From: Candidatus Gottesmanbacteria bacterium
GTDB lineage: Bacteria; Patescibacteriota; Microgenomatia; UBA10105; UBA927
Assembly (NCBI GenBank): GCA_963790805.1
Contig: CAWBPL010000002.1
Coordinates: 448,696 to 512,695 of the forward strand
Direction of reading: 5' to 3'
Length of the DNA: 64,000 bases
How positions within the stretch are numbered: position 1 is the stretch's first letter; every line of letters begins with the position of its first letter. The notes under the pieces were generated by a model, which was given only the letters and a program-made list of their open reading frames with translations, ran no database searches and was not told the origin of the DNA. Made by a program: the position numbers and the translations under genes. This document shows, in pieces, positions 1,626 to 50,123 of the stretch.

Positions 1626-1634
1626 CTCGCTATT

Positions 1635-2981: not shown

Positions 2982-2982
2982 A

Positions 2983-5376: not shown

Positions 5377-5569
5377 CGAGCAGGGTTGACAAATTAGAGT
5401 GTATGGTATCATACTGAAGGTATAATGGTTGAAGTAGTTTTTTGGGATAGAATATTTATATATAAAAAATGGGTAAATGGATTGTTATATGGCTCCAAAT
5501 AGGAGCCTTTTTTATAGCTGCGCTAAAGAGCTTGACAGAGGTGTTATAGAATGATACTATAGGTTAGTT

Positions 5570-33539: not shown

Positions 33540-34400
33540 TTACAGTTCGTCTAATTTGACGTTATCGGTTTTCTGGTCTTTGACGAGCTCAAGATACCGC
33601 TCGGTTGTGGAAAGGCGCTTATGACCGACGAGTTTAGAGAGCGTCGTAATCGGCGTTCCCGCCATCAGATGATGGGCAATAAAGGTATGGCGAAGGTCGT
33701 TGACCTTGGCTCCCTCAATGCCGGCAATTCTGAAATACCGGTCAATGGCGGTTCTGATGTTTCGAATAAGAAGCGGCCGGCCGGTTTTGGTAATAAACAA
33801 TGCCTTACTCGTTGCGTTATTGCCGCGTACTTCTATATAGCGGTCCAGCGCTTCTTTAGCAGCTTTATTCAAAGGCACGTTTCGTTCTGCATGACCTTCC
33901 TGCGCTGCGACATGAAGTTCGGTCGGTTTTATATCATCAAGCGTTAACGCGGCAAGTTCGCCGATTCGGACGCCGGTTTGTAAAAAGAGCTCAACGATGG
34001 CATAAATCCGGAGGTCTCCGCGGCACGCATCACGAAGCGCCCGATATTCAATTTTCGATAAAATTCTCGGAGGCTTGACCTCGTATTTCGGATGTTCAAT
34101 TTCGATCGCCGGATCGGAAGTGATGATTCCTGCGGCCTTTAGGAATCTAAAAAAGGTTTTAATGGAATTAATCTTTCGTGAAATTGACTTAGGGGTATAG
34201 TTGTCGCTTGCGAGCTTTTTTAAGAACGCATCCAACTCGTCACGGGTAATGTCCGTAATCGTCTTTTTACCCATGTTGCCCAAAAACAGGGTCAACTGTT
34301 CAATGTCTTTTCCGTATGCTACGATGGTAGCGCGCGCACGTTTGCGGCTTTCGAGATACTCAGTAAATTGTGTATGGGCATCTTTCAATGTAACGGCCAT
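33540..34400 (-). CDS. tyrosine recombinase, XerC/XerD family
   Basis: N-terminal SAM-like core-binding domain (ARATIVAYGKDIEQL). Catalytic box LRHTFIAHHL...LVGHKRLSTTERYLEL. It could be the chromosomal dif recombinase or an integrase, and lies about 0.8 kb from the island edge. Confidence 0.8.
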   Translation of the reverse strand: MAVTLKDAHTQFTEYLESRKRARATIVAYGKDIEQLTLFLGNMGKKTITDITRDELDAFLKKLASDNYTPKSISRKINSIKTFFRFLKAAGIITSDPAIEIEHPKYEVKPPRILSKIEYRALRDACRGDLRIYAIVELFLQTGVRIGELAALTLDDIKPTELHVAAQEGHAERNVPLNKAAKEALDRYIEVRGNNATSKALFITKTGRPLLIRNIRTAIDRYFRIAGIEGAKVNDLRHTFIAHHLMAGTPITTLSKLVGHKRLSTTERYLELVKDQKTDNVKLDEL

Positions 34401-34853: not shown

Positions 34854-34887
34854 AGTTTAGCTTGCGCTGATGAGTGAAGCGACGAAG

Positions 34888-34959
34888 TGCCAGCGGCAGG
34901 AATCGGACCTGCTGCCCATGCCTTATGAAGACACTGCTCTACCAATGAGCTACGCTGGC
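34888..34959 (-). tRNA. tRNA with CAT anticodon (elongator Met or lysidine-modified Ile2); CCA not encoded
   Basis: The reverse complement folds by hand. Acceptor GCCAGCG/CGCTGGC. D arm GCTC-ATTGGTA-GAGC. Anticodon arm GTGTC-TTCATAA-GGCAT. Variable GGGCA. T arm GCAGG-TCCGATT-CCTGC. Discriminator A. 72 nt. Confidence 0.85.
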
Positions 34960-35009
34960 CTCTGAGACAGAAACTACGTTTCTTTCCCAGCGATACTTTC
35001 TACCAATGA

Positions 35010-35048
35010 ATTGCGACGGGTTCAGGTCATAAAGCACACCGTCGCAAT
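35010..35048. repeat. perfect 10-bp inverted repeat with 19-nt spacer
   Basis: ATTGCGACGG (35010-35019) and CCGTCGCAAT (35039-35048). Confidence 0.8.
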
Positions 35049-35131: not shown

Positions 35132-35161
35132 TTGACCATCAGGATGCTCTCCGAGTATAAT
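35132..35161 (+). promoter_or_regulatory. sigma70-like promoter aimed at the tRNA-like gene
   Basis: TTGACC (35132-35137), 18-nt spacer, TATAAT (35156-35161). It ends 24 nt before position 35185. Confidence 0.55.
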
Positions 35162-35184: not shown

Positions 35185-35254
35185 CGCGGGGTAGTGTAGA
35201 GTAGCACAGAAGGCTCATAATCTTCTAGACCAGGCGCGACTCCTGGCCCCGCAA
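35185..35254 (+). tRNA. non-canonical tRNA-like gene, anticodon CAT (possibly an element-borne or hybrid tRNA)
   Basis: Hand fold. Acceptor CGCGGGG/CCCCGCA (C1xA72 mismatch plus 6 bp). D stem GTGT/GCAC with loop AGAGTA (no GG). Anticodon arm GAAGG-CTCATAA-TCTTC. Variable TAGA. T arm CCAGG-CGCGACT-CCTGG (no TTC). Discriminator A. 70 nt. Confidence 0.5.
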
Positions 35255-36970
35255 CAAGCTAGGAATTGAAGCAAACATTTCGTCCGTTTGAGCCGTTGGA
35301 ATGCTCTGTTTATCGGGTGCGAGTAATTCCTGAAGTATTGGTGCTTCTTTTTTCATCTTCTTGATCACAATAAACGGCAACGGGCTTTCAATACGCAGTG
35401 TTTTATCTTGTAATTTTAGGTGCGAACCTAACTTTGATAATATCTCCCGTTTCACTCCGAGGTCGGGTTCTGCGAACCGCTCACGTGCATGAGCGGCAAA
35501 ATTGAATTTCTCGTTTATCTCGTCTGCGGCTTGGAGCATACGTTCGTCTATACTGCCCATCTGCTTCCCTAATCCTTTAATTTCAGCTTCCAGTTTGAGT
35601 TTCTGTTCCTTGAATTGTTCGTCAGATAACATGCTTCCATCACTATTGAGTGGTGAAATTTTGAGTTTGACGAGATTATCAAGTTCTTTCCGGGCGTCAG
35701 AGTGGGCACGAGTCACCGATTGTATTGCTTCCTCTCGGAAATCCCGCTCACCGTCATTCATTACATTGATTTGTCTGATAGACCAATCTACGAAGCACTG
35801 TGGTATTTCAAGAGATGAAATTTCAGCATCAATCTGCTTTTCAAATAGATCAAGTCGTATGCCTTTTTGTGTACACCGTAGGTCTTTCCGGCGTTTACAG
35901 CGATAGTAAATGTAATGCAGGATTTTTGGCTCTTTCATTTGGTCAATACGAGTTTTGCACTGTGGACACGCTTCTTTATTTTTCTTCGTTAAAGAAAACT
36001 TGAGCTTACAGGTACGGCAAATACACTGCCATTTCTCCTCTGCGGTGATCGTGGAGCCACAAAACCCGCATTTTAGCAGTGACGTATATGCCCACTCGTG
36101 ATTTTTGAGATGATATTTGCTTTTATGACCGAGTATTACCTGCACTTCTTCAAATAACTCATCACTGATGGCGGGTTCATGTTTTCCTTCGTGCCATTCT
36201 CCGCTCCCTTCGGGGTACTCAAATTTGCCTGTGTAGAAGGGATTGCCGAGGATTTTATAGATATTGCTGATAGACAACGGTCGCCCCCCCATTCGTTTTT
36301 GTTGCCTTGTCCTGTAGCCCCATTCCTTTTCCGCTAACCGGTGTATCTCAGTCACCGGCGTACCTTTTCGGAATAGCTCAAATATCCTTTGAATGAACGG
36401 GAGCCGTTCTGGATCGGTTAAAACACGCCTAAAACCGCTTTCCGTGCCTTTATCATTGAGATACCCCTGTGGTGCAACACCTGGACGCCACCCATCACGG
36501 CATTTTTTATCAAGACCACGTTTCACTACAATCGCCTTATCATCACTGTCTTTTTTGGATAATCCAAACTCCAAAGTTAGCATAAACTTATCTTCCGGCG
36601 TGTTGTGATATGTCCGGGATGGTGTACGGACTTCAAGCAATTTTCCCATATCAAACAGGTCAATAATTCGTCCGCCGTCAGTCATATTACGAGCTAATCG
36701 GTTAGGATGCCACGTGACTATCGCATTCGCTTCACCCTGTTCTATCCGCGTAATCATTGATTCAAAAATAGGACGTCCTTTTACATGGGCTGATTGTGAT
36801 TCATCTAACACTTCGATAACTCGCAGATTATGGCGTGATTTCAGACCTTCAAGGATATAAAGTTGCTCCGGGAGAGAAGCAGCCTGCCGTTCCTTGTTAT
36901 CCTCGCTAGACTTGCGGGCATATCGAAGTATTTTAGTTGAACAGTTTTGAATCCATAATAAAGCCCCCAC
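35225..36970 (-). CDS. large serine recombinase (resolvase/invertase N-domain + recombinase domain + zinc ribbon + coiled coil)
   Basis: N-terminus ILRYARKSSEDN (catalytic Ser region), NAIVTWHPNRLARN, and a Cys-rich zinc-ribbon block CGFCGSTITAEEKWQCICRTCK...CPQCK. The 3' end overlaps the tRNA-like gene by 30 nt on the opposite strand. Confidence 0.85.
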   Translation of the reverse strand: MGALLWIQNCSTKILRYARKSSEDNKERQAASLPEQLYILEGLKSRHNLRVIEVLDESQSAHVKGRPIFESMITRIEQGEANAIVTWHPNRLARNMTDGGRIIDLFDMGKLLEVRTPSRTYHNTPEDKFMLTLEFGLSKKDSDDKAIVVKRGLDKKCRDGWRPGVAPQGYLNDKGTESGFRRVLTDPERLPFIQRIFELFRKGTPVTEIHRLAEKEWGYRTRQQKRMGGRPLSISNIYKILGNPFYTGKFEYPEGSGEWHEGKHEPAISDELFEEVQVILGHKSKYHLKNHEWAYTSLLKCGFCGSTITAEEKWQCICRTCKLKFSLTKKNKEACPQCKTRIDQMKEPKILHYIYYRCKRRKDLRCTQKGIRLDLFEKQIDAEISSLEIPQCFVDWSIRQINVMNDGERDFREEAIQSVTRAHSDARKELDNLVKLKISPLNSDGSMLSDEQFKEQKLKLEAEIKGLGKQMGSIDERMLQAADEINEKFNFAAHARERFAEPDLGVKREILSKLGSHLKLQDKTLRIESPLPFIVIKKMKKEAPILQELLAPDKQSIPTAQTDEMFASIPSLLRGQESRLV

Positions 36971-37120
36971 CGGGTGGACTCAGATCGGTGAAGACCTGTC
37001 CCAATGGGGGCATTAAAAATCTCCACCTAAATCTCTGAGTCCATATTTATTATATGACCAGTCATAAAGTTTTATCAAGTTTTTGAAGCTATTTTTAATA
37101 CATAGACTTTTCGGCAAATG

Positions 37121-37681
37121 TCAGTGCGTGCATAGTTTTATTGCTTTTTTTAAGGAAGATTCGATATTTTTTCGCATCTTGCCCGCATACCATTTCCGCT
37201 TCAATTTAGCTTCCATTTCATCCAGTTCTGGTGCACTCGTAACGTTTCCGAACGTTTTCCAGATTCCGCTTAATTTTTGGCTTTCATACGTGAGGTTGTA
37301 ACAGTGTCTACAGGCGAAGTGTTTACCTCCGAGATATAGAACGCCTACTCTCCTGCCGCAATAGACACCGTTGGCATACCAAGGGCACTGAAACCAGTAG
37401 CGAAAGCCCCCAAAGTGACAAGGAGTCGTAATTAACGGAACTTTATAGTCGAAGTCCTGTTTCTCGCCTGTATCACGGTCAGTTTGAGTATAGGTAAATC
37501 GAATGTATTGCTCGCTGTCATCTATGTTCGATTGAATACCAGTGCTTCCTGTTTTTTCCCCATTTCTCGACCATGTCATTGTTCCTGATATCCCGCTACT
37601 AAAGTAGCCGTGTTTTTTAAGAAAATACACACTTACTTGTTTGAGGCTATCTGCTTCTTCTTTAGATGACCATCTACTCAT
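37121..37681 (-). CDS. hypothetical zinc-ribbon protein
   Basis: CHFGGFRYWFQCPWYANGVYCGRRVGVLYLGGKHFACRHCYNLTYESQ (a CxxC-type four-Cys arrangement). Family not recognised. Confidence 0.45.
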   Translation of the reverse strand: MSRWSSKEEADSLKQVSVYFLKKHGYFSSGISGTMTWSRNGEKTGSTGIQSNIDDSEQYIRFTYTQTDRDTGEKQDFDYKVPLITTPCHFGGFRYWFQCPWYANGVYCGRRVGVLYLGGKHFACRHCYNLTYESQKLSGIWKTFGNVTSAPELDEMEAKLKRKWYAGKMRKNIESSLKKAIKLCTH

Positions 37682-37898
37682 ATATTCTCCTACATACCGA
37701 AATCATTAGAGATTCTCATAATTTAGCCTCAACTACATGTTACAAAACCACCATTTATTCATCATTTTTCTGGTTTTATAGCCTTTGTAGATCATGTAGA
37801 GGGTGTTTCCGGTACTGCCAACAAGGATTTTTGAGCATCAAGGTTATTTTTTGATACGCCTGACGCTTCCCTAGGAAACTCTACATCCTCTACTACCT

Positions 37899-39173
37899 CT
37901 ACTTGTTTATCTTGCGGGATGCCGTAGCGCTCGCAGAGCGTGTGTCCCTTATATTATCCCACAGAATTTCGGTAACTCCATTGATTCGCCGGGTATTGAA
38001 GTTAAATAGTGATGAGTTTATCTTTCCAATTTTTGCCGGTGATACAAGATATTCTCCCTGTTCTCTGCTGCGTTCGCTGTTTATACGCTTGGCGATTTCT
38101 TTACATCTCAACTCAACGCTTTCGGTTATCATCGCAATCATTGTCCGAAGCACCTGCGCCGGTAGCTCATCGCTCCTCTGTGAAGTCAAATTATCTGCAT
38201 ATCCTTTGACAAACCGTATAATTTCGTCCCGCGCTACATTATCTTCGGCAATACTCAATATCGGAAGAATAATTTGATTGATTCTTGGTTCTACACCCGA
38301 TAATGCAAGTTTTAGATCAACCTCAAGTTGTCCGTAGTGTTCTAGGCGAAAGCCTAAAAGGATATTTCTAAGCTCTAACGCTTCTTTATTAAACACTTTG
38401 GGTAAGTGGATAGGAATATCACTCCGGAGCTTATTTGACATAATTTCAGTGAGGCAACGACTTTCTAGCGCTGAATCATCGAATCGTTTTCTGGTACTGA
38501 TGAGCTTGGGACCGTAGACGATATAGCTTGTCGGCACCCTATCTTTGGCGTCTCCTTCTGTCCGAAGGATTGGTATGCCCTTACAGTAGCCACAGTTGAG
38601 TATTTTTATGATCTCTGCGGACGCATCCGAAAAGCGAAAATCCGCCTCATCAATGATGAGTGTCCCACGATAGAGATTGATAATGCGGAAAATGGGGGAT
38701 GGTGTCGTTGCACCGGCTACAAACATCGGTTTATAACAAAGGCTCCCTATAACCTTCTGAAACCGTGTTTTGCCGGTCCCGTAGTCTCCTAGCGCCCGGA
38801 GATAAGGGAGCACCTCGAAGCAGTCATAGACCCACGTGAGAAGCACGTAATAACTTGCGAGCTTGCGGTAGGAATCGGACACATCGAGGTATCGGTAGAT
38901 AAAATCCTCAATTTCATTGACCAGGTCAGCTACGTTTGCTCCAAACTTCGGGTATTCTGGAAGTAAGATGGTTCCGTTGGCAGTCAGATCGTCTTTTGGC
39001 GGGATGTACGTTACATCTCCAAACTCGTATTTATCCGTAACCTCGTTTTTTTGGGTTAGCAAGTTATAAACCACAAACATTGATGCCTGGTTATTGCCGA
39101 TAAGCTCCACGACATCACCGTTGCCGGGATCGAGAAAACTGGTCTGCTTGAATTTTGTTTTTTGGTCTGTCAT
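37899..39173 (-). CDS. P-loop NTPase, putative element replication (primase/helicase-like) protein
   Basis: Walker A GDYGTGKT and Walker B TLIIDEAD. 4-nt overlap with the upstream small gene. Confidence 0.45.
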   Translation of the reverse strand: MTDQKTKFKQTSFLDPGNGDVVELIGNNQASMFVVYNLLTQKNEVTDKYEFGDVTYIPPKDDLTANGTILLPEYPKFGANVADLVNEIEDFIYRYLDVSDSYRKLASYYVLLTWVYDCFEVLPYLRALGDYGTGKTRFQKVIGSLCYKPMFVAGATTPSPIFRIINLYRGTLIIDEADFRFSDASAEIIKILNCGYCKGIPILRTEGDAKDRVPTSYIVYGPKLISTRKRFDDSALESRCLTEIMSNKLRSDIPIHLPKVFNKEALELRNILLGFRLEHYGQLEVDLKLALSGVEPRINQIILPILSIAEDNVARDEIIRFVKGYADNLTSQRSDELPAQVLRTMIAMITESVELRCKEIAKRINSERSREQGEYLVSPAKIGKINSSLFNFNTRRINGVTEILWDNIRDTRSASATASRKINK

Positions 39174-39385
39174 ATAGGTTTAGGTTGAGATAAAAGCTTG
39201 CTCACTCGTTCGGTTTGCTGTCTTATTTTGTTATCGATGGTCGGCAAGATGCGCTCGTTGATAAACTTAGCCTTGTTTTTATCGCCGGTTCGCATAAAAT
39301 CTAGTCGTTTACAAAATAAGTCAGTGCTTTCGTCCAAATAAGCAACAAGCGTGTCTAGTTCAGCCAGTAATTCTTTTTTGTCCAT
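39170..39385 (-). CDS. hypothetical small protein
   Basis: 71-aa ORF in operonic overlap with the P-loop gene. Confidence 0.35.
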   Translation of the reverse strand: MDKKELLAELDTLVAYLDESTDLFCKRLDFMRTGDKNKAKFINERILPTIDNKIRQQTERVSKLLSQPKPI

Positions 39386-39542
39386 AAACCCCTAGTTTCG
39401 TTAATCGCTTTGGGAAATACACCACTCTCACCAAATCCACTAGCCTCGTGCCTTCCTCAAGCGCTTTTTCGTAGGATATTTCTTTCCCGAACGTTTGTTT
39501 ATAAAGTTTTTGATATTCCATAATGGCTTGTTGGGATAACAT
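39360..39542 (-). CDS. hypothetical small protein
   Basis: Start placed at MLSQQAIMEYQKLYKQTFGKEISYEKALEEG, which abuts the stop of the DUF5659 gene at 39545. Confidence 0.35.
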   Translation of the reverse strand: MLSQQAIMEYQKLYKQTFGKEISYEKALEEGTRLVDLVRVVYFPKRLTKLGVYGQKRITG

Positions 39543-39544
39543 AT

Positions 39545-39796
39545 TTACCCCCCATAAATGCGTGATTTTGCCTCTCGTAATGCGTAAAAATACTTTTTGG
39601 GGGTAACTGTTCCCGTGTCGTTCCAATACGCCTGAATTGCTTTTTGAAGCTCCGTGGTATTGGAAAAAACGAAGGTAACTTTTCCGGGATTAGATTTGTT
39701 GATAGAAACAAGAGGAAAATTCCATGCAATAAGCGCCGCAATTAGCGAAAGCTCTTGTGAAACAAAAACATTTTCTCGTAATTCTTTCTTAATCAT
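39545..39796 (-). CDS. DUF5659 domain protein
   Basis: SLIAALIAWNFPLVSINKSNPGKVTFVFSNTTELQKAIQAYWNDTGTVTPKKYFYALREAKSRIY resembles the DUF5659 pattern seen in phage or CPR mobile elements. Confidence 0.5.
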   Translation of the reverse strand: MIKKELRENVFVSQELSLIAALIAWNFPLVSINKSNPGKVTFVFSNTTELQKAIQAYWNDTGTVTPKKYFYALREAKSRIYGG

Positions 39797-39897
39797 GAAT
39801 TCACTAAGGCTTGATTACGAGACCCTGTCAAGCGCAATTTTCGTAGCTAATTCGTGAGAAGTATATGGTATGCCGTAATATGAAGTTGGATTACGAC

Positions 39898-40422
39898 CTA
39901 TGTTATCTTAAAAATCCAGTTTTTCTTTTTTCTGTTGAACGTCAAAAATAATCGCTCTTCTAACTTTGGTTTTTGTCTGTGTCGTTTGCGGATAGCTGTA
40001 GTACAACGCGATATAGGGGCATCTGGTCTGTTTTTGTGGAGCTCAATATAAATACTCATAACCTCTTCTGGAGTAAATTCTGTTTTCCCAGGGTTCCTTA
40101 TCCGCAAATTCCAAAAGGCTTCAAAGACTTTTCGTTCTTGAGGCGCAGAGCTAAAGTTGATTACATCGGACGATCCGTCTCCGAGCTTGAAAAATACTAC
40201 TCCATTTTGATACATCACCCTCTGCCCTGGAAGAAATTGTACAATCTTTCCAGTGTCTCTGAATTGTTGCAATAAGGGGATGTTGACGCCATTGAAGATG
40301 ATCTCGGCTTGATAAACGTCTTTGTACGGATTTGTAGACCAACCACGCAAACAGCCAGCAGCTTTCAGCTTATTTAGAAAAGCGCTAAATAATCGCCATT
40401 CCCCAAAATAATAATTGAACAA
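39898..40422 (-). CDS. hypothetical protein
   Basis: 174-aa ORF with a basic C-terminus (RKRHRQKPKLEERLFLTFNRKKKN). Family not recognised. Confidence 0.4.
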   Translation of the reverse strand: MFNYYFGEWRLFSAFLNKLKAAGCLRGWSTNPYKDVYQAEIIFNGVNIPLLQQFRDTGKIVQFLPGQRVMYQNGVVFFKLGDGSSDVINFSSAPQERKVFEAFWNLRIRNPGKTEFTPEEVMSIYIELHKNRPDAPISRCTTAIRKRHRQKPKLEERLFLTFNRKKKNWIFKIT

Positions 40423-40471
40423 ATTGTATTTATTGTTCCACTACCTGCTTCTGTCCATTGAAAAGTCATAT

Positions 40472-40672
40472 TTATTCCATGCGTTTCCTATCTTCTTGAG
40501 TACTTGCAATTTTTCGTTGGATAACAAGATCGTAATCTTTTTGTTTTTGATCAAGTTGGTTTTGATGAAGATTGATCGCCTTGTTTATATTTTCAATGTT
40601 ATCCGTGAGAGTATCAGGTATAACTGTCGGATAATAGATTTGTTGCGGTAACTGCTTTGATTTCTTTTTCAT
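40472..40672 (-). CDS. hypothetical small protein
   Basis: 66-aa ORF, first gene of the minus-strand module. Confidence 0.3.
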   Translation of the reverse strand: MKKKSKQLPQQIYYPTVIPDTLTDNIENINKAINLHQNQLDQKQKDYDLVIQRKIASTQEDRKRME

Positions 40673-40775
40673 TTTAATTTTAATAGTGAGCCTATTATAT
40701 CAGGAAAAACGACACGGTGGCTTCCAAAGTTATTCTATTTCTGGTATCGTACAGGGGACAATTTAATTGCCTAAA

Positions 40776-40880
40776 CTACCGAAAGGTAGCATGGCAGAAA
40801 AACCGGTAAAGAGCTGTAAGCTCTCGTCAGAGCATCTTTACCGGTCATGCAAGGAAACTTGCATGGGTGACGCAAGTCAT
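40776..40880 (+). ncRNA. candidate structured RNA leader (four consecutive hairpins, three with GNRA tetraloops)
   Basis: CTACC-GAAA-GGTAG (40776-40789). 11-bp helix ACCGGTAAAGA...TCTTTACCGGT (40802-40845). CATGCAAG-GAAA-CTTGCATG (40846-40865). TGAC-GCAA-GTCA (40868-40879). The GNRA loops exist only on the + strand. Confidence 0.45.
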
Positions 40881-40900
40881 CACTGGCGGGAGCTTTCTGT

Positions 40901-41269
40901 GTGAAATACATATCTAATTTATTCAAAGGTAGGCTGGGTGTAATTAACTACTGGATTGGTTGGATTATTCCAATAATACTATTTGGCGTTCTAGGCAACG
41001 CAATAATAGGGATTTCAAAGACCCCGGTTGGATTCATAGTTTTGATGTTTGTAGAGCTCGTATTATTTATATATTTCTTTTCTCTCTTTGTAAGGAGACT
41101 CCATGATAATGGCAAGAGCGGATGGTATCTGTTATGGAGTTTTGTTCCGTTGGTAAACTTATATCTCCTTGTGTTGCTATTTTATATTCCCGGAAACAAA
41201 AAAACTAACAAATTTGGTTCTCCTAATAATAAGGCTCGTTTAAGAAATATATTCGCATTAGAATCTTAA
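40901..41269 (+). CDS. DUF805 family inner-membrane protein
   Basis: RRLHDNGKSGWYLLWSFVPLVNLY is the DUF805 hallmark. GTG start. Confidence 0.7.
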   Translation: MKYISNLFKGRLGVINYWIGWIIPIILFGVLGNAIIGISKTPVGFIVLMFVELVLFIYFFSLFVRRLHDNGKSGWYLLWSFVPLVNLYLLVLLFYIPGNKKTNKFGSPNNKARLRNIFALES

Positions 41270-41299
41270 ACACGGAAGTGGGCTAAAATTTACATAAAA

Positions 41300-42055
41300 A
41301 TGAAAAGAATAATTTTAATAGTAATACTTCTTATAGGAGTTTCCCTTATAGCTATAGCGTTGAGCTATCCGATCAGAGAATACATCTTCAAAGAACAACA
41401 ACTTGGAGACCTCAATACCAAAGGTGGTGCAGAAATCACATTTCAATTTGACATGACAAATATACCAGAGGCTGAAAGAAATAAAGTATTTAATGAAAGC
41501 AAGGGTATTCTCTCTAGACGGATAGAATTCTTCGGACTCTACCCTTTTATGCAAGATTCTTCTAACTACGAAGTGGTTGTTCGGCTTGCTAATGTCAGGA
41601 ATCTTGATTTATTAGCGACTTTATTGGGAACTACAGCACAGTTGGATTTCCGTGAGTATACAAACCCGAATGCTTCAATCAGCGCGACAACAACAGTTGC
41701 GGATCTATTGAATATGACAAAATCCGTCGGTATAACCGGTAACGATTTGACGCATGCGCAGGTTACGTTTGACAATACAACTGGCGCACCGCAGGTAGCA
41801 ATCACTTTTAATGCTGCGGGCACAACAAAGTTGGCTAACGTTACACGACGTCTTGTTGGAAAGCCACTTGCTATATTTTTGGATAACAAATCTATTACTT
41901 CCCCGGTGATAAAACAGGAAATTACTGATGGATCTGCGGTTATCAACGGACAATTTACCCAGGATCAGGCAGAAACACTTGCTCTGCAACTTAATGCTGG
42001 CGCTCTCCCTACACCCGTTTCAATCCTTGAAAAACATATCATTAAAGCAAAATGA
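41300..42055 (+). CDS. SecD-like protein consisting only of TM1 plus the periplasmic P1 head/base domain
   Basis: GDLNTKGGAEITFQFD, LLGTTAQLDFRE and GKPLAIFLDNKSITSPVIKQEITDGSAVINGQFTQDQAETLALQLNAGALPTPVSI match SecD N-terminal motifs. The protein ends before the 5 C-terminal TM helices. Confidence 0.6.
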   Translation: MKRIILIVILLIGVSLIAIALSYPIREYIFKEQQLGDLNTKGGAEITFQFDMTNIPEAERNKVFNESKGILSRRIEFFGLYPFMQDSSNYEVVVRLANVRNLDLLATLLGTTAQLDFREYTNPNASISATTTVADLLNMTKSVGITGNDLTHAQVTFDNTTGAPQVAITFNAAGTTKLANVTRRLVGKPLAIFLDNKSITSPVIKQEITDGSAVINGQFTQDQAETLALQLNAGALPTPVSILEKHIIKAK

Positions 42056-42369
42056 AAACGATTTTAATAATCATCGCCTGCATATCCCTGATCACTATTT
42101 CTCTATCTGCTTCTTACTATTTTGTTATCTTTCTTCCTAAACAGGAGCGCGTTAATACCGCAACGCTTAAAAGAATTGAACAATCAACGGTAAATACTGA
42201 GGGGAATACCCAACCAATTATAGATACAACTGATATTCAAAATAAGCTAGACGATATAAATAACTCGTTACAAGAACAGCAAAGAGATACCGAATTGCGG
42301 AATAATTGTGAATCAAACGGAGGGGTTTATAGAGGGAACGGCGTATGTTGTCTTACCAACTGTCAATAA
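42052..42369 (+). CDS. hypothetical membrane-anchored protein with Cys-rich C-terminus
   Basis: N-terminal TM and C-terminal CESNGGVYRGNGVCCLTNCQ. ATGA overlap with the upstream gene. Confidence 0.4.
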   Translation: MKTILIIIACISLITISLSASYYFVIFLPKQERVNTATLKRIEQSTVNTEGNTQPIIDTTDIQNKLDDINNSLQEQQRDTELRNNCESNGGVYRGNGVCCLTNCQ

Positions 42370-42404
42370 AAAATAATTGGTGTCTGTGATTTTTTGAGTA
42401 ACCC

Positions 42405-43184
42405 ATGACTAAAACTTGTCCCTTTTGTAAAAAGCACGTAGATAAATCAGCGGCAGAATGTCCTCACTGTAAACGGGTACTGATTGAGTACATCGGTAAC
42501 CGTTCTTCTGTACCGAATCCTCATAAGACTACGATACTGGAAAGCATCAAAAAGCGCTTAGCTACCTTCCATAAACGTATACATAATACCCATATTAGGC
42601 TTCACAAGCCTTCTTTCAATAAGAATTATCTATGGATCATTCCGGTTATCATTTTTCTTGTTATTCTTGCGTCCGGGCACACCGGCAATCTCACAAGTAC
42701 GGATAGTTCTGAAAATATCCCGACCAGCACAACGGAAAACTCATTACCCACGAACTACAACAGACTATCAAACGGATCGGTACTGTCTTCCCGTATTGTT
42801 AGCAGTTCGGGGTTAGGTACCTTTGAGATTGATAACGGCACAGAAGATGATGCCGTTGCAAAATTAGCGAATACAAAAATAGGTGTATCGGTATTTACCG
42901 TATTTATCCGAGCAAACTCAAAGTTTACCATTACGAAAATACCCGATGGAACGTATATGCTCTATTTTCAAACGGGAAAAGATTGGGACAATACCGCGAA
43001 GAAGTTTTTGTACTACCCGTCTTTTTCACAGTTTACCGATGATTTTCAGTACACGACGACCCATATAGAGACGTACGATGCCATCAATACGAGATACTCA
43101 ACCTATCAAGTGACGCTCAACCCTGTAGCCGGTGGAACAGCGAAAACGAACGCCGTTTCAGAGAGCGAGTTTGAAAAGTATTAG
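42405..43184 (+). CDS. zinc-ribbon / TM / extracytoplasmic-domain protein
   Basis: CPFCKKHVDKSAAECPHCKR, TM (LWIIPVIIFLVILASG), C-terminal beta-rich domain. Confidence 0.45.
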   Translation: MTKTCPFCKKHVDKSAAECPHCKRVLIEYIGNRSSVPNPHKTTILESIKKRLATFHKRIHNTHIRLHKPSFNKNYLWIIPVIIFLVILASGHTGNLTSTDSSENIPTSTTENSLPTNYNRLSNGSVLSSRIVSSSGLGTFEIDNGTEDDAVAKLANTKIGVSVFTVFIRANSKFTITKIPDGTYMLYFQTGKDWDNTAKKFLYYPSFSQFTDDFQYTTTHIETYDAINTRYSTYQVTLNPVAGGTAKTNAVSESEFEKY

Positions 43185-43198
43185 CGCGATCAATACGT

Positions 43199-43498
43199 AT
43201 GTACCAATTTGATAAATATGCACGTCCCTATTGCACAACTTGTAAGTTGTTTTGGGGAAAACAGAATATAGGAACCCTCTTGAGTTGTACGAAGTTCGGT
43301 CGACGGTTGATCTTAAAATCTTTTAATCCCTTTGCCCAATGCGTGAAGGGGTTAGGAATAATGAGCTTAGGCGGATTATCTATGGTACTCGGGCTTCCCA
43401 TTATTTGGATCGGTGGTTTCCTATGGGGAGGTCAACAGATCCTTCACGCATTTAAGCAATGGGGCGACGTAAAGGCGTTGGATAATAAGACGTTATGA
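43199..43498 (+). CDS. hypothetical small membrane protein
   Basis: 99-aa ORF with a Cys pair near the N-terminus and a G-rich TM hairpin. Confidence 0.35.
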   Translation: MYQFDKYARPYCTTCKLFWGKQNIGTLLSCTKFGRRLILKSFNPFAQCVKGLGIMSLGGLSMVLGLPIIWIGGFLWGGQQILHAFKQWGDVKALDNKTL

Positions 43499-43654
43499 TG
43501 CCTTGCTTGAAACTGATTGATCATGCGTTATTCGACGAATTTTACCACTCAGGATAGGGATTACATCCCTAAGGGCAATCCTAGCTACAGCTGAGGCTGT
43601 GTAATGCCGTAAAACGATCGGAAAGGTGAGAGGTGACGTTATATAGCTTCAATT

Positions 43655-43683
43655 TTGACAAGCTGCCGTGTGACTGTTAGTAT
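43655..43683 (+). promoter_or_regulatory. sigma70-like promoter upstream of the NUDIX gene
   Basis: TTGACA (43655-43660), 17-nt spacer, TAGTAT (43678-43683). Confidence 0.45.
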
Positions 43684-43793
43684 AAATATAGCTTTAGCGA
43701 TTCGAAAGAATGTCCATTGCAGCTACCAGTATTTTGGGGCTGCATTTTTTGTGTTAAGCCCCAAAAATATAAACAGTAGATTGGAGGTGGAAT

Positions 43794-44192
43794 ATGGAAA
43801 ACAAAATTTATGTATCAGTCTATGCGCTGATAAAAAACACTAACGGGCGTTACCTGTTTATTCAAAGGGCAAATAATGATTCCATGCCGGGCGTCTGGGA
43901 AGTGCCCGGGGGTAAAACGGAGTATGGTGAAGACCCGAAAGAATCCTTAAAAAGAGAGGTGATGGAGGAGGTTGGGTTAAACATTGAGCCATTAAACCCC
44001 TTTTGTGTGGTCTCCCATATAAGTCTGGAGAAGCAAGCCGTAAGAATTGTTTATACGGCTAATTTAATAAAATCCGGTGATGTTAAGCTAAGTTCGGAAC
44101 ACGCAGCGTTTAAGTGGGCTGATTTCTCTGATCTCGAAGTTAGCAGCTCGCTTTTTTTACAGCAGGTATATAAAAATTTGAAGGAATCTTGA
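43794..44192 (+). CDS. NUDIX hydrolase
   Basis: Nudix box GVWEVPGGKTEYGEDPKESLKREVMEEVGL. Confidence 0.85.
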   Translation: MENKIYVSVYALIKNTNGRYLFIQRANNDSMPGVWEVPGGKTEYGEDPKESLKREVMEEVGLNIEPLNPFCVVSHISLEKQAVRIVYTANLIKSGDVKLSSEHAAFKWADFSDLEVSSSLFLQQVYKNLKES

Positions 44193-44294
44193 TTGATTTT
44201 ACCCTTGGGATAGAGAAGCCTTGAATAATAATCTTTTCCCTATCAATCAGGTTAATCTAAACTTAATTGATAGGCGTTTTTGGTGAGATAATAG

Positions 44295-44316
44295 GTTCTG
44301 ATTTTTTAGATCTGGG
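44295..44316 (+). repeat. diverged copy of the island repeat block
   Basis: ATAATAG|GTTCTGATTTTTTAGATCTGGG shares ATAATAGGTTCT with copy A and GTTCTGATTT with the copy at 35168. Confidence 0.4.
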
Positions 44317-44322
44317 AATGCT

Positions 44323-44352
44323 ATAAAAACAAAGACCCCGGCTTTCGCCGGG
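44323..44352 (-). terminator. rho-independent terminator of the NYN gene
   Basis: GC hairpin CCCGGC-gaaa-GCCGGG on the minus strand, followed by GTCTTTGTTTTTAT. Confidence 0.6.
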
Positions 44353-44454
44353 TGAAGTAATTAACTGCATCTTATATCATCAAAAACTGTTTGTCAAGAG
44401 ATAGCCCATTCTGACCGCTAAAACAGCATATTCCGTCATTTACGCAGGGCAAAT

Positions 44455-45177
44455 TCATGCCGATTTTTTCTCGTATTTCAATATTCTTTCCAAATCCTCA
44501 AGCCGGGTATATGTTACATAGGGGGACTGGAATGCAAGCACCTTAAGCTCATGTGATATTCTAGTTTCAAAACTGAAAATATGAACAGGCTTCCCAATAC
44601 TAGTTGTTTGTTTTACGAGTTTTTCAAAGTCTGAATCCCCAGCGAAGAGAATAAGTTCGTTCCATTGCTGCTGTTCTATTATGGCGTCAATCATCAGGTC
44701 ACCATCAGTCTTATTGGATGGTTTATGCTCGTCCCCCAAGATAAACTTCAATGGTTTGGAAACGACGCGTATACCGATGCCTCTTAATCCGTTCTCAAAT
44801 CTTAATGCCCCTTCGTTCAAAATATAATTTCCTTTAGCATCTTTTTGGTATTTGCCGTTTGCGTCCTGCTTGTAGCCAGTGCAGTTATAGTAACTGATAA
44901 TCGCAATTGAGTATTTTCGTTCGATGAATTGACGAAGACTCGCGTAGTTTACTTGCCAACCCGCTATTTTCCCTCCATGGTAAACGTTTGACCCATCAAT
45001 ATACAGGCCCACCTTGGACTTCACCTTTCCGGTAATCGAAGCGAACGGGACAAGCCAAGTTTTCCCTTTTTTAACAGCACCGGGTATCTGGTCGTTTTGG
45101 CAACGTTTTTTCAATGTTTCTTGATCTATTTCTGAGAGCTGTTCAGCCTCGATTAAGGTAATTAGAGAATCACTCAT
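44455..45177 (-). CDS. HTH (excisionase/MerR-like) + NYN (LabA-like) ribonuclease-domain protein
   Basis: N-terminus LITLIEAEQLSEIDQETLKKRCQNDQIPGAVKKGKTWLVP (HTH_17-like). Then VGLYIDGSNVYHGGK...LILFAGDSDF, the acidic NYN motifs. Confidence 0.6.
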   Translation of the reverse strand: MSDSLITLIEAEQLSEIDQETLKKRCQNDQIPGAVKKGKTWLVPFASITGKVKSKVGLYIDGSNVYHGGKIAGWQVNYASLRQFIERKYSIAIISYYNCTGYKQDANGKYQKDAKGNYILNEGALRFENGLRGIGIRVVSKPLKFILGDEHKPSNKTDGDLMIDAIIEQQQWNELILFAGDSDFEKLVKQTTSIGKPVHIFSFETRISHELKVLAFQSPYVTYTRLEDLERILKYEKKSA

Positions 45178-45325
45178 GAATATATTTTACCGGTATCGGT
45201 AATTGTTGTCAAGTAACATGCTCAAATTCTCTGTTCGTGTCAGAAAATGATTATAGTTATTATGTGGAAAATATCATCAAAATCGACTAAAATAGCCATA
45301 CTCCAAGAGATAGAAAGAGAAGGAT

Positions 45326-45736
45326 ATGGATACTTACAAATACATCGGAACAGTGAGCTATACGGTGTTAGATAGTAATTTTGGCACTGCTCAGTGGCAA
45401 CCAAAGACTTTTTATGGCGCACCTTTGGGAACCATAATCACTCTCCCGCCTATGTTTCTGAGTGCATTCGGTTCCGCCGGTACATCTTTACCCACCATTT
45501 CTTCATACGGGCAGCCGTACGTGGCTGCGGTGAATATAGTGAGGCAAGATTATGAGTTTGGTAAACCAGTTTTTGACTTGGATCGTTACATTGTTAAGCC
45601 GACAAATTACTACGGAATCGTGTTGAAGGAGCGACCAGATAGTCAACATCATCTAAATCCCGAAAGTAAGCTTATAGATTTTCTTGAGCCGAGGTTACAA
45701 GTTAATATTAAAAAAACGCTTAAATCGAACAGGTGA
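45326..45736 (+). CDS. hypothetical protein (cassette 1)
   Basis: 136-aa ORF followed by repeat copy A. No recognisable family. Confidence 0.4.
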   Translation: MDTYKYIGTVSYTVLDSNFGTAQWQPKTFYGAPLGTIITLPPMFLSAFGSAGTSLPTISSYGQPYVAAVNIVRQDYEFGKPVFDLDRYIVKPTNYYGIVLKERPDSQHHLNPESKLIDFLEPRLQVNIKKTLKSNR

Positions 45737-45780
45737 TGAAATCAACTGATAGATTGATATTGCTTGGGATGTATAATCAA

Positions 45781-45814
45781 ATAATAGGTTCTAACTTCTT
45801 GTAACCCCCGCAAC
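45781..45814 (+). repeat. island direct repeat, copy A
   Basis: ATAATAG GTTCTAACTTCTTGTAACCCCCGCAAC (core 45788-45814). Confidence 0.85.
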
Positions 45815-46588: not shown

Positions 46589-46633
46589 GTTCTAACTTCT
46601 TGTAGTCCCCGCAACCAAAATTAGTTTAGGCTG
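46589..46633 (+). repeat. island direct repeat, copy B
   Basis: GTTCTAACTTCTTGTAGTCCCCGCAAC CAAAATTAGTTTAGGCTG. Confidence 0.85.
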
Positions 46634-47360: not shown

Positions 47361-47375
47361 TTATTAAGGCAATAG

Positions 47376-47410
47376 ATTCCAAGTTTTTTTGTAACCCCCG
47401 CGACGAGGCT
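47376..47410 (+). repeat. island direct repeat, copy C (more diverged)
   Basis: ATTCCAAGTTTTTTTGTAACCCCCGCGAC GAGGCT. Confidence 0.75.
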
Positions 47411-47729: not shown

Positions 47730-47770
47730 GTTCTAAGTTCTTGTAACCTCCGCAACCAAATTTGAGGCTG
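47730..47770 (+). repeat. island direct repeat, copy D (starts the nucleotide after the stop codon)
   Basis: GTTCTAAGTTCTTGTAACCTCCGCAAC CAAATTTGAGGCTG. Confidence 0.85.
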
Positions 47771-47809: not shown

Positions 47810-48127
47810 CTAAGTGAATACAGGCGATGTGGAGTGAGGATGGAGCCCACTTCATGAAAGAAATGTCGAACTTTCATGACGCTGACCCTAATCAGGTACG
47901 GAGGCGAAACCGTAAAAAGTCTGTCAACATATGTCGCAAGTAGCGGAGTATGTCATAAACAAGACTTCTTACATGACGTGCTTCCTTAAAGGGAAGCATT
48001 TTTTGTAGGCAAGTGAAACCCTCTTTCGTTGAAACTACGGAGGGTAAACAAGGTGGCACCGCCCTCAATAAGAGAGCCCTTGTAAGTCTTTCAGGACTTT
48101 TTCTGGGAGATTTGCAAGGGTTTTTTT
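47810..48127 (+). promoter_or_regulatory. T-box riboswitch leader (transcription attenuation type)
   Basis: T-box sequence AACAAGGTGGCACCGCC (48047-48063). Antiterminator: A1 CAAGG/CCTTG, 7-nt bulge TGGCACC, A2 GCCCTC/GAGAGC. Competing 13-bp terminator CCCTTGTAAGTCT...AGATTTGCAAGGG (48077-48120) plus T7. Stem III ACCCTC/GAGGGT. Upstream GCGATG/AGTGA elements. Confidence 0.8.
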
Positions 48128-48222
48128 ATAGCGATAGTTCAGTTGGCAGAACGCGTGTGCGGAATGCGTGAGCGCTACGCGGTTGGGGCTTGAATCGCCG
48201 GTTCGATTCCGGCCCCGCCTGC
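48128..48222 (+). ncRNA. tRNA-like element of unclear status (canonical D arm and T arm, no foldable acceptor or anticodon arm)
   Basis: TA-GTTC-AGTTGGCA-GAAC (48135-48152) and GCCGG-TTCGATT-CCGGC (48197-48213), followed by CCCGCCT-G. The 44 nt between them gave no 5-7-5 anticodon arm with U33, and no AGGCGGG 5' strand is present. Confidence 0.35.
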
Positions 48223-48257
48223 ACGGTAAAAATTATTTGATACAATAAGGAGGTTGT

Positions 48258-50123
48258 ATGAAAGATCGAATAGTTCAAAAATATAGTGAAGAGTTAACGA
48301 AACTCGGAATTCATCACGAGGTATTTGAGCATCCGCAACTTATTTCTGTTGAAAAAGTGCAAAAGTATCTGGGGTATGGAATGGATGATTCTGCGGCAAC
48401 GCTGGTGATGAAAGCAGGGGATCGATTTGTCGCAATTATTCGTAGGGGAGACACGAAGCTCGATAGCGAAAAAGTCAAAAAATTATTAAACGTTACGACG
48501 CTTCGTATGGCGACGGAAGAAGAATTTTCCGATGTTACGGGTGTGCCAAGTGGAGCGGCGAGTGTGTATATTCCCAATATTCCAACGTTTATTGATAAGC
48601 GGATTTTTGAAAAACAATACATTAATGCAGGATCCGGCAGTCTTTTATATACCATTCGATATAAAGCAGAAGATTTAAAAAAGATTCCAGGGATAACCGT
48701 TGTTAATGTAACAAACGCAGATAACGCTTTAACCCCTGTAGAAAAATTAGAGGTGCCTAAGGGTAAACGGCTCTATTCTGCTATTACGCCCAGTGGTGAT
48801 GGGACACTCCATATCGGCAACTATCTCGGTGCGGTGCGGCAGTTTATTGAACTTGCAAAATACAATGAGTGTTTTTTTCAGCTGGCGACCATTCACGGAC
48901 TCACAACCATTCAGGATCAAAAGCAACTGGCTGGAAACATCGAGCGGTTAACTCTCAACGAACTGGCGCTTCTTGGAGAAAATCCTAATATTTATTTCTG
49001 TTATCAATCAGATATTCCCTATCACACCGAGCTCCAATCGATTCTCAATAATGTGACACCCTTGGGACTGCTTAAGCGTGCGCATGCGTATAAAGACAAA
49101 CTTGGTAAAGATGTCATGGAAGATGATATAAACGTCGGTTTGTTTAGTTATCCTATGCTCATGGCTGCTGACATATTGATTTATAAAGCCACGCTCGTGC
49201 CGGTGGGGAGGGATCAAAAACAGCACGTGGAAATAACGAGAGATATAGCAGAGCGGTTTAATAGGATTTATAAGAAGAAAGTATTTCCGCTTCCTGATCC
49301 TTATATACCCGAAGAAGTAGCGGTCATTCTCGGTACCGATGGGCAGCGAAAAATGAGTAAAACGCTTGGAAACATCATAAGTATTTTTGAAGATGAGGAA
49401 GTTATTAGAAAACAGGTAAACGGAACGTTTACCGATCCGACCCGGAAACACGTGACTGATCCTGGTCATGTTGAGGGAAACATGGTATTCACCTACCTCG
49501 ACTTTTTTGGTGAAAAGGAAAAAGTCAGTGAACTCAAGGAGCTCTATAAAGCAGGTAAAGTAAGCGACGTCGAAGTGAAAAAATATTTATTCGAAGCACT
49601 TATGAAGACATTCGCTCCCGCGAGGGCCCGGTATGCGGATCTCGTTGCCAACCCTGAAAAAGTGAAAAAGATTTTAGATCGGGGACGTGGGCACGCACTA
49701 GAGGTAGCATCCAAGACGATGGCAGAAGTGCGTGAGGCGGTCGGGTTTACGAATCGATATTCATTGGGACAACCATCAACGCAGGTTACTGGTAATAGCA
49801 AAATCACAATCGATGATTTTGCCAAAGTAGATGTACGGGTAGGAAAAGTTGAGGCAGCGGAAAATGTCGAAAAGAGCGAAAAACTCATCCGGCTGCATGT
49901 GGATTTCGGGAGTGGCGGCAAGCGGATTATTTTTACCGGCGTCCGGCAGTTTGGCTATACGGCGGAATATTTTACCGGTAAACAATTTTTCTTTGTGTTT
50001 AACCTTGAGCCGCGAAAGATGATGGGGGAGGAAAGTCAGGGAATGATTGTTGCGGTTGATGGCTCTCAAAAACCCATCTTCTTGTCAGGTGAAGGAATGC
50101 CGCTGGGGGCACGAATTCGATAA
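48258..50123 (+). CDS. trpS: tryptophan--tRNA ligase fused to an N-terminal YbaK/ProX-like editing domain and a C-terminal Trbp111/EMAPII-like tRNA-binding domain
   Basis: aa 1-165: ATLVMKAGDRFVAIIRRGDTKLDSEKVKKLL...GVPSGAASVY (YbaK-type). Core: ITPSGDGTLHIGNYLGA (HIGH), VPVGRDQKQHVEITRDIAERFN, KMSKTLGN. C-terminus: IDDFAKVDVRVGKVEAAENVEKSEKLIRLHVDFG (OB-fold tRNA-binding). AGGAGG RBS at 48249-48254. Confidence 0.8.
   Translation: MKDRIVQKYSEELTKLGIHHEVFEHPQLISVEKVQKYLGYGMDDSAATLVMKAGDRFVAIIRRGDTKLDSEKVKKLLNVTTLRMATEEEFSDVTGVPSGAASVYIPNIPTFIDKRIFEKQYINAGSGSLLYTIRYKAEDLKKIPGITVVNVTNADNALTPVEKLEVPKGKRLYSAITPSGDGTLHIGNYLGAVRQFIELAKYNECFFQLATIHGLTTIQDQKQLAGNIERLTLNELALLGENPNIYFCYQSDIPYHTELQSILNNVTPLGLLKRAHAYKDKLGKDVMEDDINVGLFSYPMLMAADILIYKATLVPVGRDQKQHVEITRDIAERFNRIYKKKVFPLPDPYIPEEVAVILGTDGQRKMSKTLGNIISIFEDEEVIRKQVNGTFTDPTRKHVTDPGHVEGNMVFTYLDFFGEKEKVSELKELYKAGKVSDVEVKKYLFEALMKTFAPARARYADLVANPEKVKKILDRGRGHALEVASKTMAEVREAVGFTNRYSLGQPSTQVTGNSKITIDDFAKVDVRVGKVEAAENVEKSEKLIRLHVDFGSGGKRIIFTGVRQFGYTAEYFTGKQFFFVFNLEPRKMMGEESQGMIVAVDGSQKPIFLSGEGMPLGARIR

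Follow-up and report, generated by a model that had tools for sequence, protein, structure and literature searches.

Large serine recombinases (LSRs) of one family appear to use the 3′ end of an initiator tRNA gene as their integration site. In a 64,000-nt stretch of the genome of a Candidatus Gottesmanbacteria bacterium (assembly GCA_963790805.1, contig CAWBPL010000002.1, positions 448,696 to 512,695; hereafter the window), a tRNA gene with the anticodon CAU borders an integrated element, and we consider it very probable that this gene is the initiator tRNA (tRNA-fMet) encoded on a Microgenomates chromosome and that its 3′ end is a serine-recombinase attachment site. A preliminary description of the window had remarked on the odd loops of the gene and had offered three explanations: a hybrid left attachment site (attL) composed of a chromosomal 5′ half and an element-borne 3′ half, an element-encoded decoy or mimic, or a genuinely unusual tRNA of the candidate phyla radiation (CPR). 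The last of these holds up, in that the same odd features recur in 23 Microgenomates genomes whose tRNA stems display compensatory changes.

A tRNA with the acceptor stem of an initiator

Both tools applied to the locus recognize a tRNA: ARAGORN calls tRNA-Met(CAT) at 35185-35255(+), and the Rfam model RF00005 scores the same interval at 46.9 bits against a gathering score of 29, such that the cloverleaf with a CAT loop first folded by hand at 35185 is upheld and its covariance-model score is not at background. The minimum-free-energy fold is also a cloverleaf, with an energy modestly better than that of shuffled sequences (z = -2.1). All stems pair except at position 1:72, there is no intron, and CCA is not encoded. 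As read from the sequence, the acceptor stem is CGCGGGG/CCCCGCA, with C1 opposite A72 and the discriminator base A73 at 35254; the D arm has the stem GUGU/GCAC and a 6-nt loop, AGAGUA, without GG; the anticodon arm is GAAGG-CUCAUAA-UCUUC; the variable loop has 4 nt, UAGA; and the T arm is CCAGG-CGCGACU-CCUGG. The peculiarities that had been listed for this gene (i.e., the C1xA72 mismatch, the lack of three G-C pairs in the anticodon stem, the short D loop without GG and the T loop CGCGACT) are each present.

A putative sigma-70-type promoter, TTGACC-18-TATAAT, precedes the gene (Table 1). It matches the consensus at 11 of 12 positions; its -10 hexamer ends 23 nt upstream of the first mature tRNA base, and a TATAAT lies at an equal distance from the tRNA at two related loci (L025 and L027). 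Promoter sites of this quality number two in the region, against 0.7 expected from shuffled sequences.

The case for an initiator begins with the anticodon CAU, presented within the loop CUCAUAA, and with the acceptor stem and A73, which are those of E. coli tRNA-fMet (a reference sequence that we find at 100% identity in 5,426 E. coli genomes, with a median of four copies per genome). Among 18 distinct orthologous sequences, C1xA72 is unpaired in 18, and G2:C71 and C3:G70 occur in 18, the 5′ side of all three positions having been fixed by the search pattern. Shetty et al. (2017, PMC5389676) name the 1:72 mismatch along with pairs 2:71 and 3:70 as the chief determinant for the formyltransferase.

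Several features weigh against an initiator and would suit a real tRNA of another kind, either an elongator tRNA-Met or a tRNA-Ile2 with a lysidine-modified CAU anticodon. The three G-C pairs of the initiator anticodon stem are absent, since positions 29:41, 30:40 and 31:39 are A-U, G-C and G-U, each in 18 of 18 orthologues. The A11:U24 pair in the D stem, which is a mark of bacterial initiators and is seen in the E. coli sequence, is also absent: U11:A24 occupies this position in all 18, position 11 having been left free in the pattern. Finally, the T loop is not initiator-like and does without U54 and U55, which are nearly universal. The missing G-C pairs, which the preliminary description had counted against an initiator, do not exclude one, because au/GC/gu is a documented natural variant: Shetty et al. 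(PMC5389676) describe natural initiator stems of the forms au/GC/GC, GC/GC/gu and au/GC/gu in mycoplasmas and alpha-proteobacteria, with G30 being essential.

The remaining evidence also argues against an elongator tRNA-Met or a tRNA-Ile2. C1xA72, G2:C71, C3:G70 and A73 are invariant in the 18 orthologues (positions 1-10 being fixed by the pattern), and the acceptor stem is that of E. coli tRNA-fMet. In the source organism, where tRNA calls cover the window, the second CAT tRNA that had been noted 226 nt away is confirmed on the opposite strand (62.5 bits with RF00005); because its 1:72 position is paired (G1:C72) and its D loop is normal, with GG, it fits the elongator role, and it adjoins tRNA-fMet in many relatives. 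Many relatives also hold a tRNA-Ile(UAU) nearby, so that a CAU-type tRNA-Ile2 need not be invoked and the two CAU tRNAs can be read as initiator and elongator. With au/GC/gu being a known initiator stem (PMC5389676), we judge an elongator or tRNA-Ile2 identity to be very improbable.

Orthologues and chromosomal context

Orthologues were sought in 185,579 species genomes with a pattern built on the 5′ acceptor strand, a D loop of 6 nt and the loop of the anticodon arm. Positions 1-10, portions of the D arm and the loop CTCATAA were set in this pattern; the T arm, the anticodon stem and the remainder of the 3′ half could vary. The scan returned 23 loci, all from Microgenomates/Patescibacteria genomes (Woese-, Gottesman-, Roizman-, Chisholm- and Shapirobacteria, along with several records labeled as Gammaproteobacteria). 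All 23 contain a full-length tRNA homologue ending in the nine-base sequence CCCCGCAAC, and in none of them was a recombinase homologue found in the sequence around the tRNA (8 kb in the case of L012). The L012 locus, from Ca. Gottesmanbacteria RIFOXYB1_FULL_47_11, has a tRNA with 100% identity to that of the window over 71 nt, and the two sequences begin to diverge directly 3′ of CCCCGCAAC.

The surroundings of the gene are conserved as well. The kept gene order is (tRNA-Ile UAU), a XerC-like recombinase, DivIC, elongator tRNA-Met, tRNA-fMet, (tRNA-Trp) and tryptophanyl-tRNA synthetase (TrpRS), and in four island-free loci (L018, L009, L015 and L021) no more than about 1 kb separates tRNA-fMet from TrpRS or DivIC. 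The Phage_integrase protein encoded nearby at 33540-34400 is this conserved XerC/D-like gene, which is present in relatives with or without the island.

Standard pairs fill 93% of cells across the 18 distinct orthologues used for comparative pair counts, and the D, anticodon and T stems, whose sequence the pattern left free, are paired in 98-100% of cells. Both partners have changed in five pairs of the anticodon and T stems, and the observed covariation score was not attained by any shuffle. Part of the invariance among the orthologues, i.e., that at the positions fixed by the pattern, arises by construction, and to this extent the comparison speaks less strongly for an initiator.

Because full-length orthologues occur at syntenic, island-free positions in 23 genomes, we set aside both an element-encoded decoy and a chimeric 3′ half. 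A mimic encoded by the element, for instance one that regulates the recombinase or translation in the host, would account for the tight coupling to a recombinase gene at six loci and for the non-canonical loops; but in 23 genomes the gene keeps its syntenic place on the chromosome, no recombinase having been found around the tRNA (its XerC, DivIC and TrpRS neighbors being kept where the island is missing), it has a promoter of its own on the chromosomal side, and it shows compensatory substitutions in its stems, all of which make a mimic extremely improbable. Nor do we see any appreciable chance that the gene is a pseudogene decaying beside an integration hot spot. The T and D loops do look degenerate, and a tRNA-Trp-like relic lies 13 kb away in the window, but the score of 46.9 bits and the complete pairing of every stem position except 1:72 are not those of a decaying gene, and orthologues across several candidate phyla retain the structure through compensatory changes, with coordinated changes in the loops. 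Judged from these comparisons, the strange loops of the window tRNA are a lineage trait common to its relatives.

Twelve of the records recovered by the scan (L003, L005-L007, L009-L011, L013, L015, L016, L022 and L023) bear third-party annotation and are titled ‘uncultured Gammaproteobacteria’ or ‘Pseudomonadales’, yet contain a Microgenomates-type tRNA-fMet, and most of them also show the XerC-DivIC-TrpRS neighborhood. Their taxonomic labels are probably wrong.

A remodeled elbow

In the canonical tRNA elbow, G18 and G19 of the D loop contact U54-U55-C56 of the T loop (PMC7912444), and neither side has its usual bases in the D loop AGAGUA and T loop CGCGACU of the window tRNA. Where the T loop is canonical (TTCAAnn or TTCGAnn), the orthologues show the D loops ACGGYA or AAGGTA, in which both G18 and G19 are present, whereas those with the T loops TGCGAnn or CGCnnCT have AAAGYA, ACAGTA or AGAGYA, with A in place of G18. 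Of the 18 distinct sequences, nine have G:U at 18:55 and nine have A:G, and every one of the 18 has G-C at 19:56; a tally by eye of 26 sequences gave 12 with G:U and 14 with A:G at 18:55, with zero intermediates. C54 is confined to a Gottesmanbacteria-like subgroup whose D loops start with AGAG, and in some members (L011, L025 and L027) A58 is changed to C as well.

These patterns suggest that the missing GG and the odd T loop are two sides of one remodeled elbow, in which G18:U55 would have become A18:G55, with G19:C56 kept and U54 changed to C. Since the two 18:55 states probably mark two clades, the swap may be a single evolutionary event, and its covariation is then statistically weak. Our literature search turned up no published report of this elbow variant and nothing specific on the initiator tRNAs of the CPR.

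At four loci where tRNA-fMet lies beside a recombinase (L025, L027, L028 and L029), the gene is split after U33, at position 33/34, by an intervening sequence ending in G: 218 nt at 11755-11971 in L025, 225 nt at 5107-5330 in L027, and near 11.7-12.0 kb in L028 and L029. The group I intron model RF00028 scores 58.4 bits in L025 and 54.5 bits in L027 (gathering score 50). Group I introns at position 33/34 of tRNA-Met/fMet occur in cyanobacteria and Patescibacteria (PMC13011429). The exons are of the window tRNA type, and ARAGORN missed these split genes.

The integrated element and its boundaries

Directly downstream of the tRNA lies an integrated element whose two core sequences start 10,559 bp apart (about 10.6 kb). 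The sequence CCCCGCAAC, corresponding to tRNA positions 66-73 plus one base, recurs at the far end of the element, beyond the recombinase gene and immediately after a P arm, and the same is true of four further elements (L025, L028, L029 and L030), the five measuring 6.1-11.5 kb. Identity between the two ends of each element extends over only 9-13 nt around CCCCGCAAC. The distal P arm and core of the window element are shared by L025, L028 and L030 and occur in a more diverged version in L029, with the consensus (A)ATAGGTTCTAAnnTCTTGTAAC before the distal core. Several copies of the right attachment site (attR) continue as CCCCGCAAC-CA, which corresponds to the CCA tail of an ancestral tRNA end and implies that the crossover falls within or just before the core. 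With five elements bounded in this manner and 23 genomes in which no recombinase was found at this tRNA, occupancy of the site varies among relatives.

The element has a G+C content of 38-43%, versus 44-48% in its flanks. It encodes the LSR, a DUF5659 protein, DUF805, SecDF-P1-like, NUDIX and NYN proteins, and ORFs of unknown function; comparison with PHROGs recognized no phage structural genes. It also contains a LOOT RNA (RF03000) at 40768-40881(+), which scores 87.6 bits, and L027 has another at 1154-1275(-) with 88.8 bits (gathering score 46.4). Both lie inside a recombinase element, so this orphan structured RNA may be cargo of such elements; a literature search on the context of LOOT RNA returned nothing specific.

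An independent Logan assembly of the same strain (ERR11594402) contains the same locus in three contigs, the flanks being 100% and the island (L042) 99.75% identical. These contigs (L001, L042 and L041) break at 35211/35227 inside the tRNA, at 45825 (11 nt past the attR core) and at 47892 (the end of an array of remnants described below), and the breaks probably reflect sequence shared with co-occurring genomes, or strain variation. The contig end at 35211 was considered as a crossover point and dropped, in that L042 resumes at 35227 and runs through the island. The 27-35 nt repeat of the region was also compared with integron attC and Xer dif sites, but no matching cores were seen by eye, and the repeat is the conserved distal end of the recombinase elements.

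The boundaries bear on the possibility that the tRNA is a chimeric attL, with a chromosomal 5′ half and a 3′ half supplied by the element, as in tyrosine-integrase islands that copy the 3′ part of a tRNA. Such a hybrid would be suggested by a recombinase ORF that covers the 3′ 30 nt of the tRNA, by an island that begins right after it, and by the Logan contig of the same species that ends within it. But the far end of the element shares only the nine nucleotides of CCCCGCAAC with the tRNA; the window contains no second copy of the T arm or 3′ half, even with 3 mismatches allowed; the identical full-length tRNA of L012 has no recombinase in 8 kb; the recombinase tails track the T-arm variants of the host lineages (see below); and the contig break is explicable by identical tRNAs among co-occurring genomes. 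We therefore give a chimeric gene very little credence. What survives of that proposal is the position of the junction, which does fall in the last nine nucleotides of the tRNA, but not the element-borne origin of its 3′ half.

A recombinase gene that ends within the tRNA

The element-encoded recombinase matches the Pfam domains PF00239 (Resolvase, 3.8e-15) and PF07508 (Recombinase, 5.3e-12) and, weakly, PF13408 (Zn_ribbon_recom, 20.5 bits against a cut-off of 25.3), and has the serine motif YARKSSEDN near its N terminus; it is thus of the serine and not of the tyrosine type. Its stop codon, TAG at 35225-35227, lies in the variable loop of the tRNA, and its last 10 codons (LRGQESRLV plus stop, 30 nt) are antisense to the tRNA, as had been noticed for the 3′ half of the gene. 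The same arrangement, in which the recombinase gene ends antisense in tRNA-fMet, occurs at six loci (the window, L025, L027, L028, L029 and L030), and the recombinase of L025 has 94% identity to that of the window. An exact-sequence look-up of the recombinase and of a 424-aa island protein found no record; for the recombinase, a different gene call is the likely cause (L042 lists 596 aa, with the gene cut at the contig end).

More than 750 homologues of the recombinase were detected at E < 1e-20. The best 120 have 43-94% identity, and those whose source is named come mostly from Microgenomates. Their C termini read ...SIPxLLRG, followed by QESRLV, QESHLV, RESHPA, WESHPA, no further residue, or a long extension, for example WELNPACEIMSLTCSRTLPRI. 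Translating tRNA-fMet variants antisense in the recombinase frame reproduces these tails: 39 of the best 120 homologues end exactly in one of the tRNA-fMet variant translations that we compared, and 108 of the 120 have an LRG-type motif within their last 60 residues, LRG being the antisense reading of GCCCCGCAA in the window. The tails follow the T-arm variants of the host lineages. Separately, an LSR with 44% identity in L031 ends antisense in a tRNA-Asn(GTT) at 11695-11768, which implies that the tRNA-ending habit of this recombinase family extends beyond tRNA-fMet.

In the reconstructed excised circle, the reading frame continues for 10-21 P-arm-encoded residues beyond LRG, and LRG-LQE[VLI]RTY... 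appears in four of five reconstructions. It is conceivable, if rather unlikely, that a C terminus which depends on the integration state would act as a built-in directionality switch and, relatedly, that pressure from the recombinase on the T arm (its B half-site) helped drive the loss of U54, U55 and G18 from the initiator; a regulatory role of the alternative tail is possible but unsupported.

Remnant attachment sites

Beyond attR, the window holds three extra copies of the P arm and core (Table 1), each of which closes a unit of 0.35-0.8 kb with a small ORF; from about 47881-47892 onward the sequence is again conserved host DNA, with a T-box-like leader and TrpRS. In L006, L008, L011, L012 and L024, a P arm and core also follow downstream of tRNA-fMet without a recombinase, and metagenome contigs show P-core-P′ remnants some 0.9 kb downstream of this tRNA. 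On the simplest reading, these remnants result from repeated insertion at one hot spot followed by decay.

Some observations fit poorly with this account of integration. Short remnant cassettes do not conform to the canonical attP x attB rule of serine integrases. A free attP was not found: the junction pattern had 0 viral and 9 metagenomic matches, and because the nine loci have no recombinase nearby and, where a tRNA is present, lie downstream of tRNA-fMet, they look like chromosomal remnants. For the window, a reconstructed attP would join 45775-45814 to 35256-35295, and attB would comprise 35215-35255 followed by CAAAATTAG.... A scan of the reconstructed sites for dyads revealed no clear symmetry in attP (at best 11 or 12 of 20 positions, with inconsistent centers), and the signal in attB was that of the T-arm hairpin.

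A tandem arrangement is seen in L043 (JGI Ga0438325_0014302, 1-7128), an array of at least two LSR elements with P′-core-P junctions, in which the core is TGTCGGCAC and not CCCCGCAAC. This contig (P0038) was also considered as a circular element and rejected, since comparison with itself shows only a 166-nt repeat.

Neighboring features

The elongator tRNA-Met is divergently transcribed, with a promoter-like site on its side at 35104-35076(-). Its T loop is UCCGAUU in the window and UCCGAUC in L025 (108-180), with C55 for the near-universal U55, which makes it a second tRNA of this lineage without a site for pseudouridine 55 (Psi55). The interval between the two tRNA genes contains a perfect 10-bp inverted repeat, ATTGCGACGG...CCGTCGCAAT (35010-35048), within the presumed leader of the elongator gene, and just before this repeat lies the 10-nt repeat CTACCAATGA (35000-35009), a copy of part of the elongator D arm.

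On the far side of the island, 47926-48225(+) contains a weak T-box-like leader (29 bits; gathering score 93), a terminator-like hairpin and then, upstream of TrpRS, a degenerate tRNA-Trp-like stretch (21.6 bits), in which neither the 5′ acceptor strand nor the anticodon arm is preserved whole; the tRNA-Trp(CCA) that L025 has at this place is intact. The TrpRS itself, at 48258-50123(+), is fused to a YbaK-type aminoacyl-tRNA editing domain at its N terminus and to a tRNA_bind domain at its C terminus, and L005 encodes a homologue of the entire protein.

Table 1. Features of the tRNA-fMet locus, numbered from the first base of the window
Feature	Position	Strand	Basis
Probable initiator tRNA (tRNA-fMet, anticodon CAU), 70-71 nt	35185..35255	+	ARAGORN, RF00005, orthologues, pair counts, E. 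coli-type acceptor stem
Putative promoter TTGACC-18-TATAAT, sigma-70-type	35132..35161	+	Consensus match; function predicted from sequence
Integrated element	35256..45814	.	Boundaries, gene content, G+C, L042
attL common core CCCCGCAAC (tRNA positions 66-73 and one base)	35247..35255	+	Same 9-mer at the far end here and in L025, L028, L029, L030
attR: P arm AATAGGTTCTAACTTCTTGTAAC, then core CCCCGCAAC (45806-45814)	45783..45814	+	Shared distal-end motif
Large serine recombinase, 581 aa as listed, true start uncertain	35225..36970	-	Pfam domains; homologues
Elongator tRNA-Met (CAU)	34887..34959	-	ARAGORN; RF00005 62.5 bits; divergent transcription
Second P arm and core copy (remnant att), then CA, giving CCA with the final C of the core	46589..46615	+	Repeat comparison
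Third P arm and core copy, degenerate, core CCCCGCGAC; terminator-like hairpin after it	47371..47404	+	Repeat comparison
Fourth P arm and core copy, CCTCCGCAAC-CA	47730..47756	+	Repeat comparison

Discussion

If the window gene is an initiator, it would be transcribed from its own sigma-70-type promoter, its ends would be trimmed and CCA then added, since none is encoded; methionyl-tRNA synthetase would charge it through the CAU anticodon, the formyltransferase would recognize C1xA72, G2:C71, C3:G70 and A73, and the au/GC/gu anticodon stem would place it in the ribosomal P site. These steps, like the activity of the recombinase, are predictions from sequence. The last nine bases of the same gene would provide the common core of the attachment site for a family of LSRs, at which the element would have integrated and left the tRNA intact. 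The recombinase gene, at the tRNA-proximal end of the element, would read antisense across the core into the tRNA and stop at the TAG formed by the variable loop. The end of the protein, ...SIPxLLRG, would therefore be imposed by the P′ half-site and the core, and its last residues would be dictated by the T arm of the host; that the core-adjacent P′ arm codes for ...FASIPSL would explain why this protein end is conserved.

Among the closest known systems, the tRNA-fMet of E. coli (metZWV/metY) shares with the window gene the CAU anticodon, the acceptor stem CGCGGGG/CCCCGCA with C1xA72, G2:C71, C3:G70 and A73, and the G30:C40 pair, and it also contains the nine-base core CCCCGCAAC. The window tRNA differs from it in having the au/GC/gu stem, U11:A24, a D loop of 6 nt that lacks G18, a variable loop of 4 nt, the T loop CGCGACU in place of TPsiCAAAU, and no encoded CCA. 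The au/GC/gu initiators of mycoplasmas and alpha-proteobacteria, as characterized in PMC5389676, are similar in that A-U and G-U stand in for the first and third G-C pairs, with three consecutive purine:pyrimidine pairs and G30 kept; the window tRNA, in contrast, belongs to the Patescibacteria and combines this stem with a remodeled D-loop/T-loop elbow.

As an integration site, the locus resembles the tRNA islands of tyrosine integrases, with a direct repeat of the tRNA 3′ end, an intact tRNA, an adjacent integrase gene and remnants at a hot spot, but differs from them in its LSR, its repeat of only 9-13 nt and an ORF that crosses the core into the tRNA. With phiC31, Bxb1, A118, TP901-1 and the Ccr recombinases of SCCmec it shares the Resolvase/Recombinase/zinc-ribbon architecture, a short core and an attachment site beside the integrase gene, and the Ccr recombinases likewise target the 3′ end of a conserved gene. 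Unlike these known large serine integrases, the window element targets a tRNA gene. Mageeney et al. (2020, PMC7192596) wrote of serine integrases using a t(m)RNA gene that this ‘has not been reported previously’ and gave 14 computational cases among 297, and a search for literature on serine recombinases and tRNAs in Patescibacteria returned nothing specific. The recurrence of the arrangement points to a whole clade of serine integrases that uses the 3′ end of tRNA-fMet, with an ORF crossing the core, a usage hardly reported before.

Most likely, then, the window tRNA is ordinary in its function, with peculiarities specific to its lineage, and lies on a systematic but little-described integration site. 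It would represent a natural and widely conserved bacterial initiator that lacks G18, U54 and U55 and retains only one of the three G-C pairs, and as such offers a test case for what formylation, proofreading by initiation factor 3, RNase P, CCA addition and P-site binding require of the elbow and the anticodon stem; its loops suggest that bacteria with such reduced genomes can do without Psi55 and T54. For annotation, it means that recombinases ending in ...LRG(Q/R/W)ES... or ...DSNH would owe these residues to antisense tRNA sequence. For the study of mobile elements and for genome engineering, a clade of serine integrases that acts on an initiator tRNA would stand against the belief that serine integrases avoid tRNA genes (PMC7192596).

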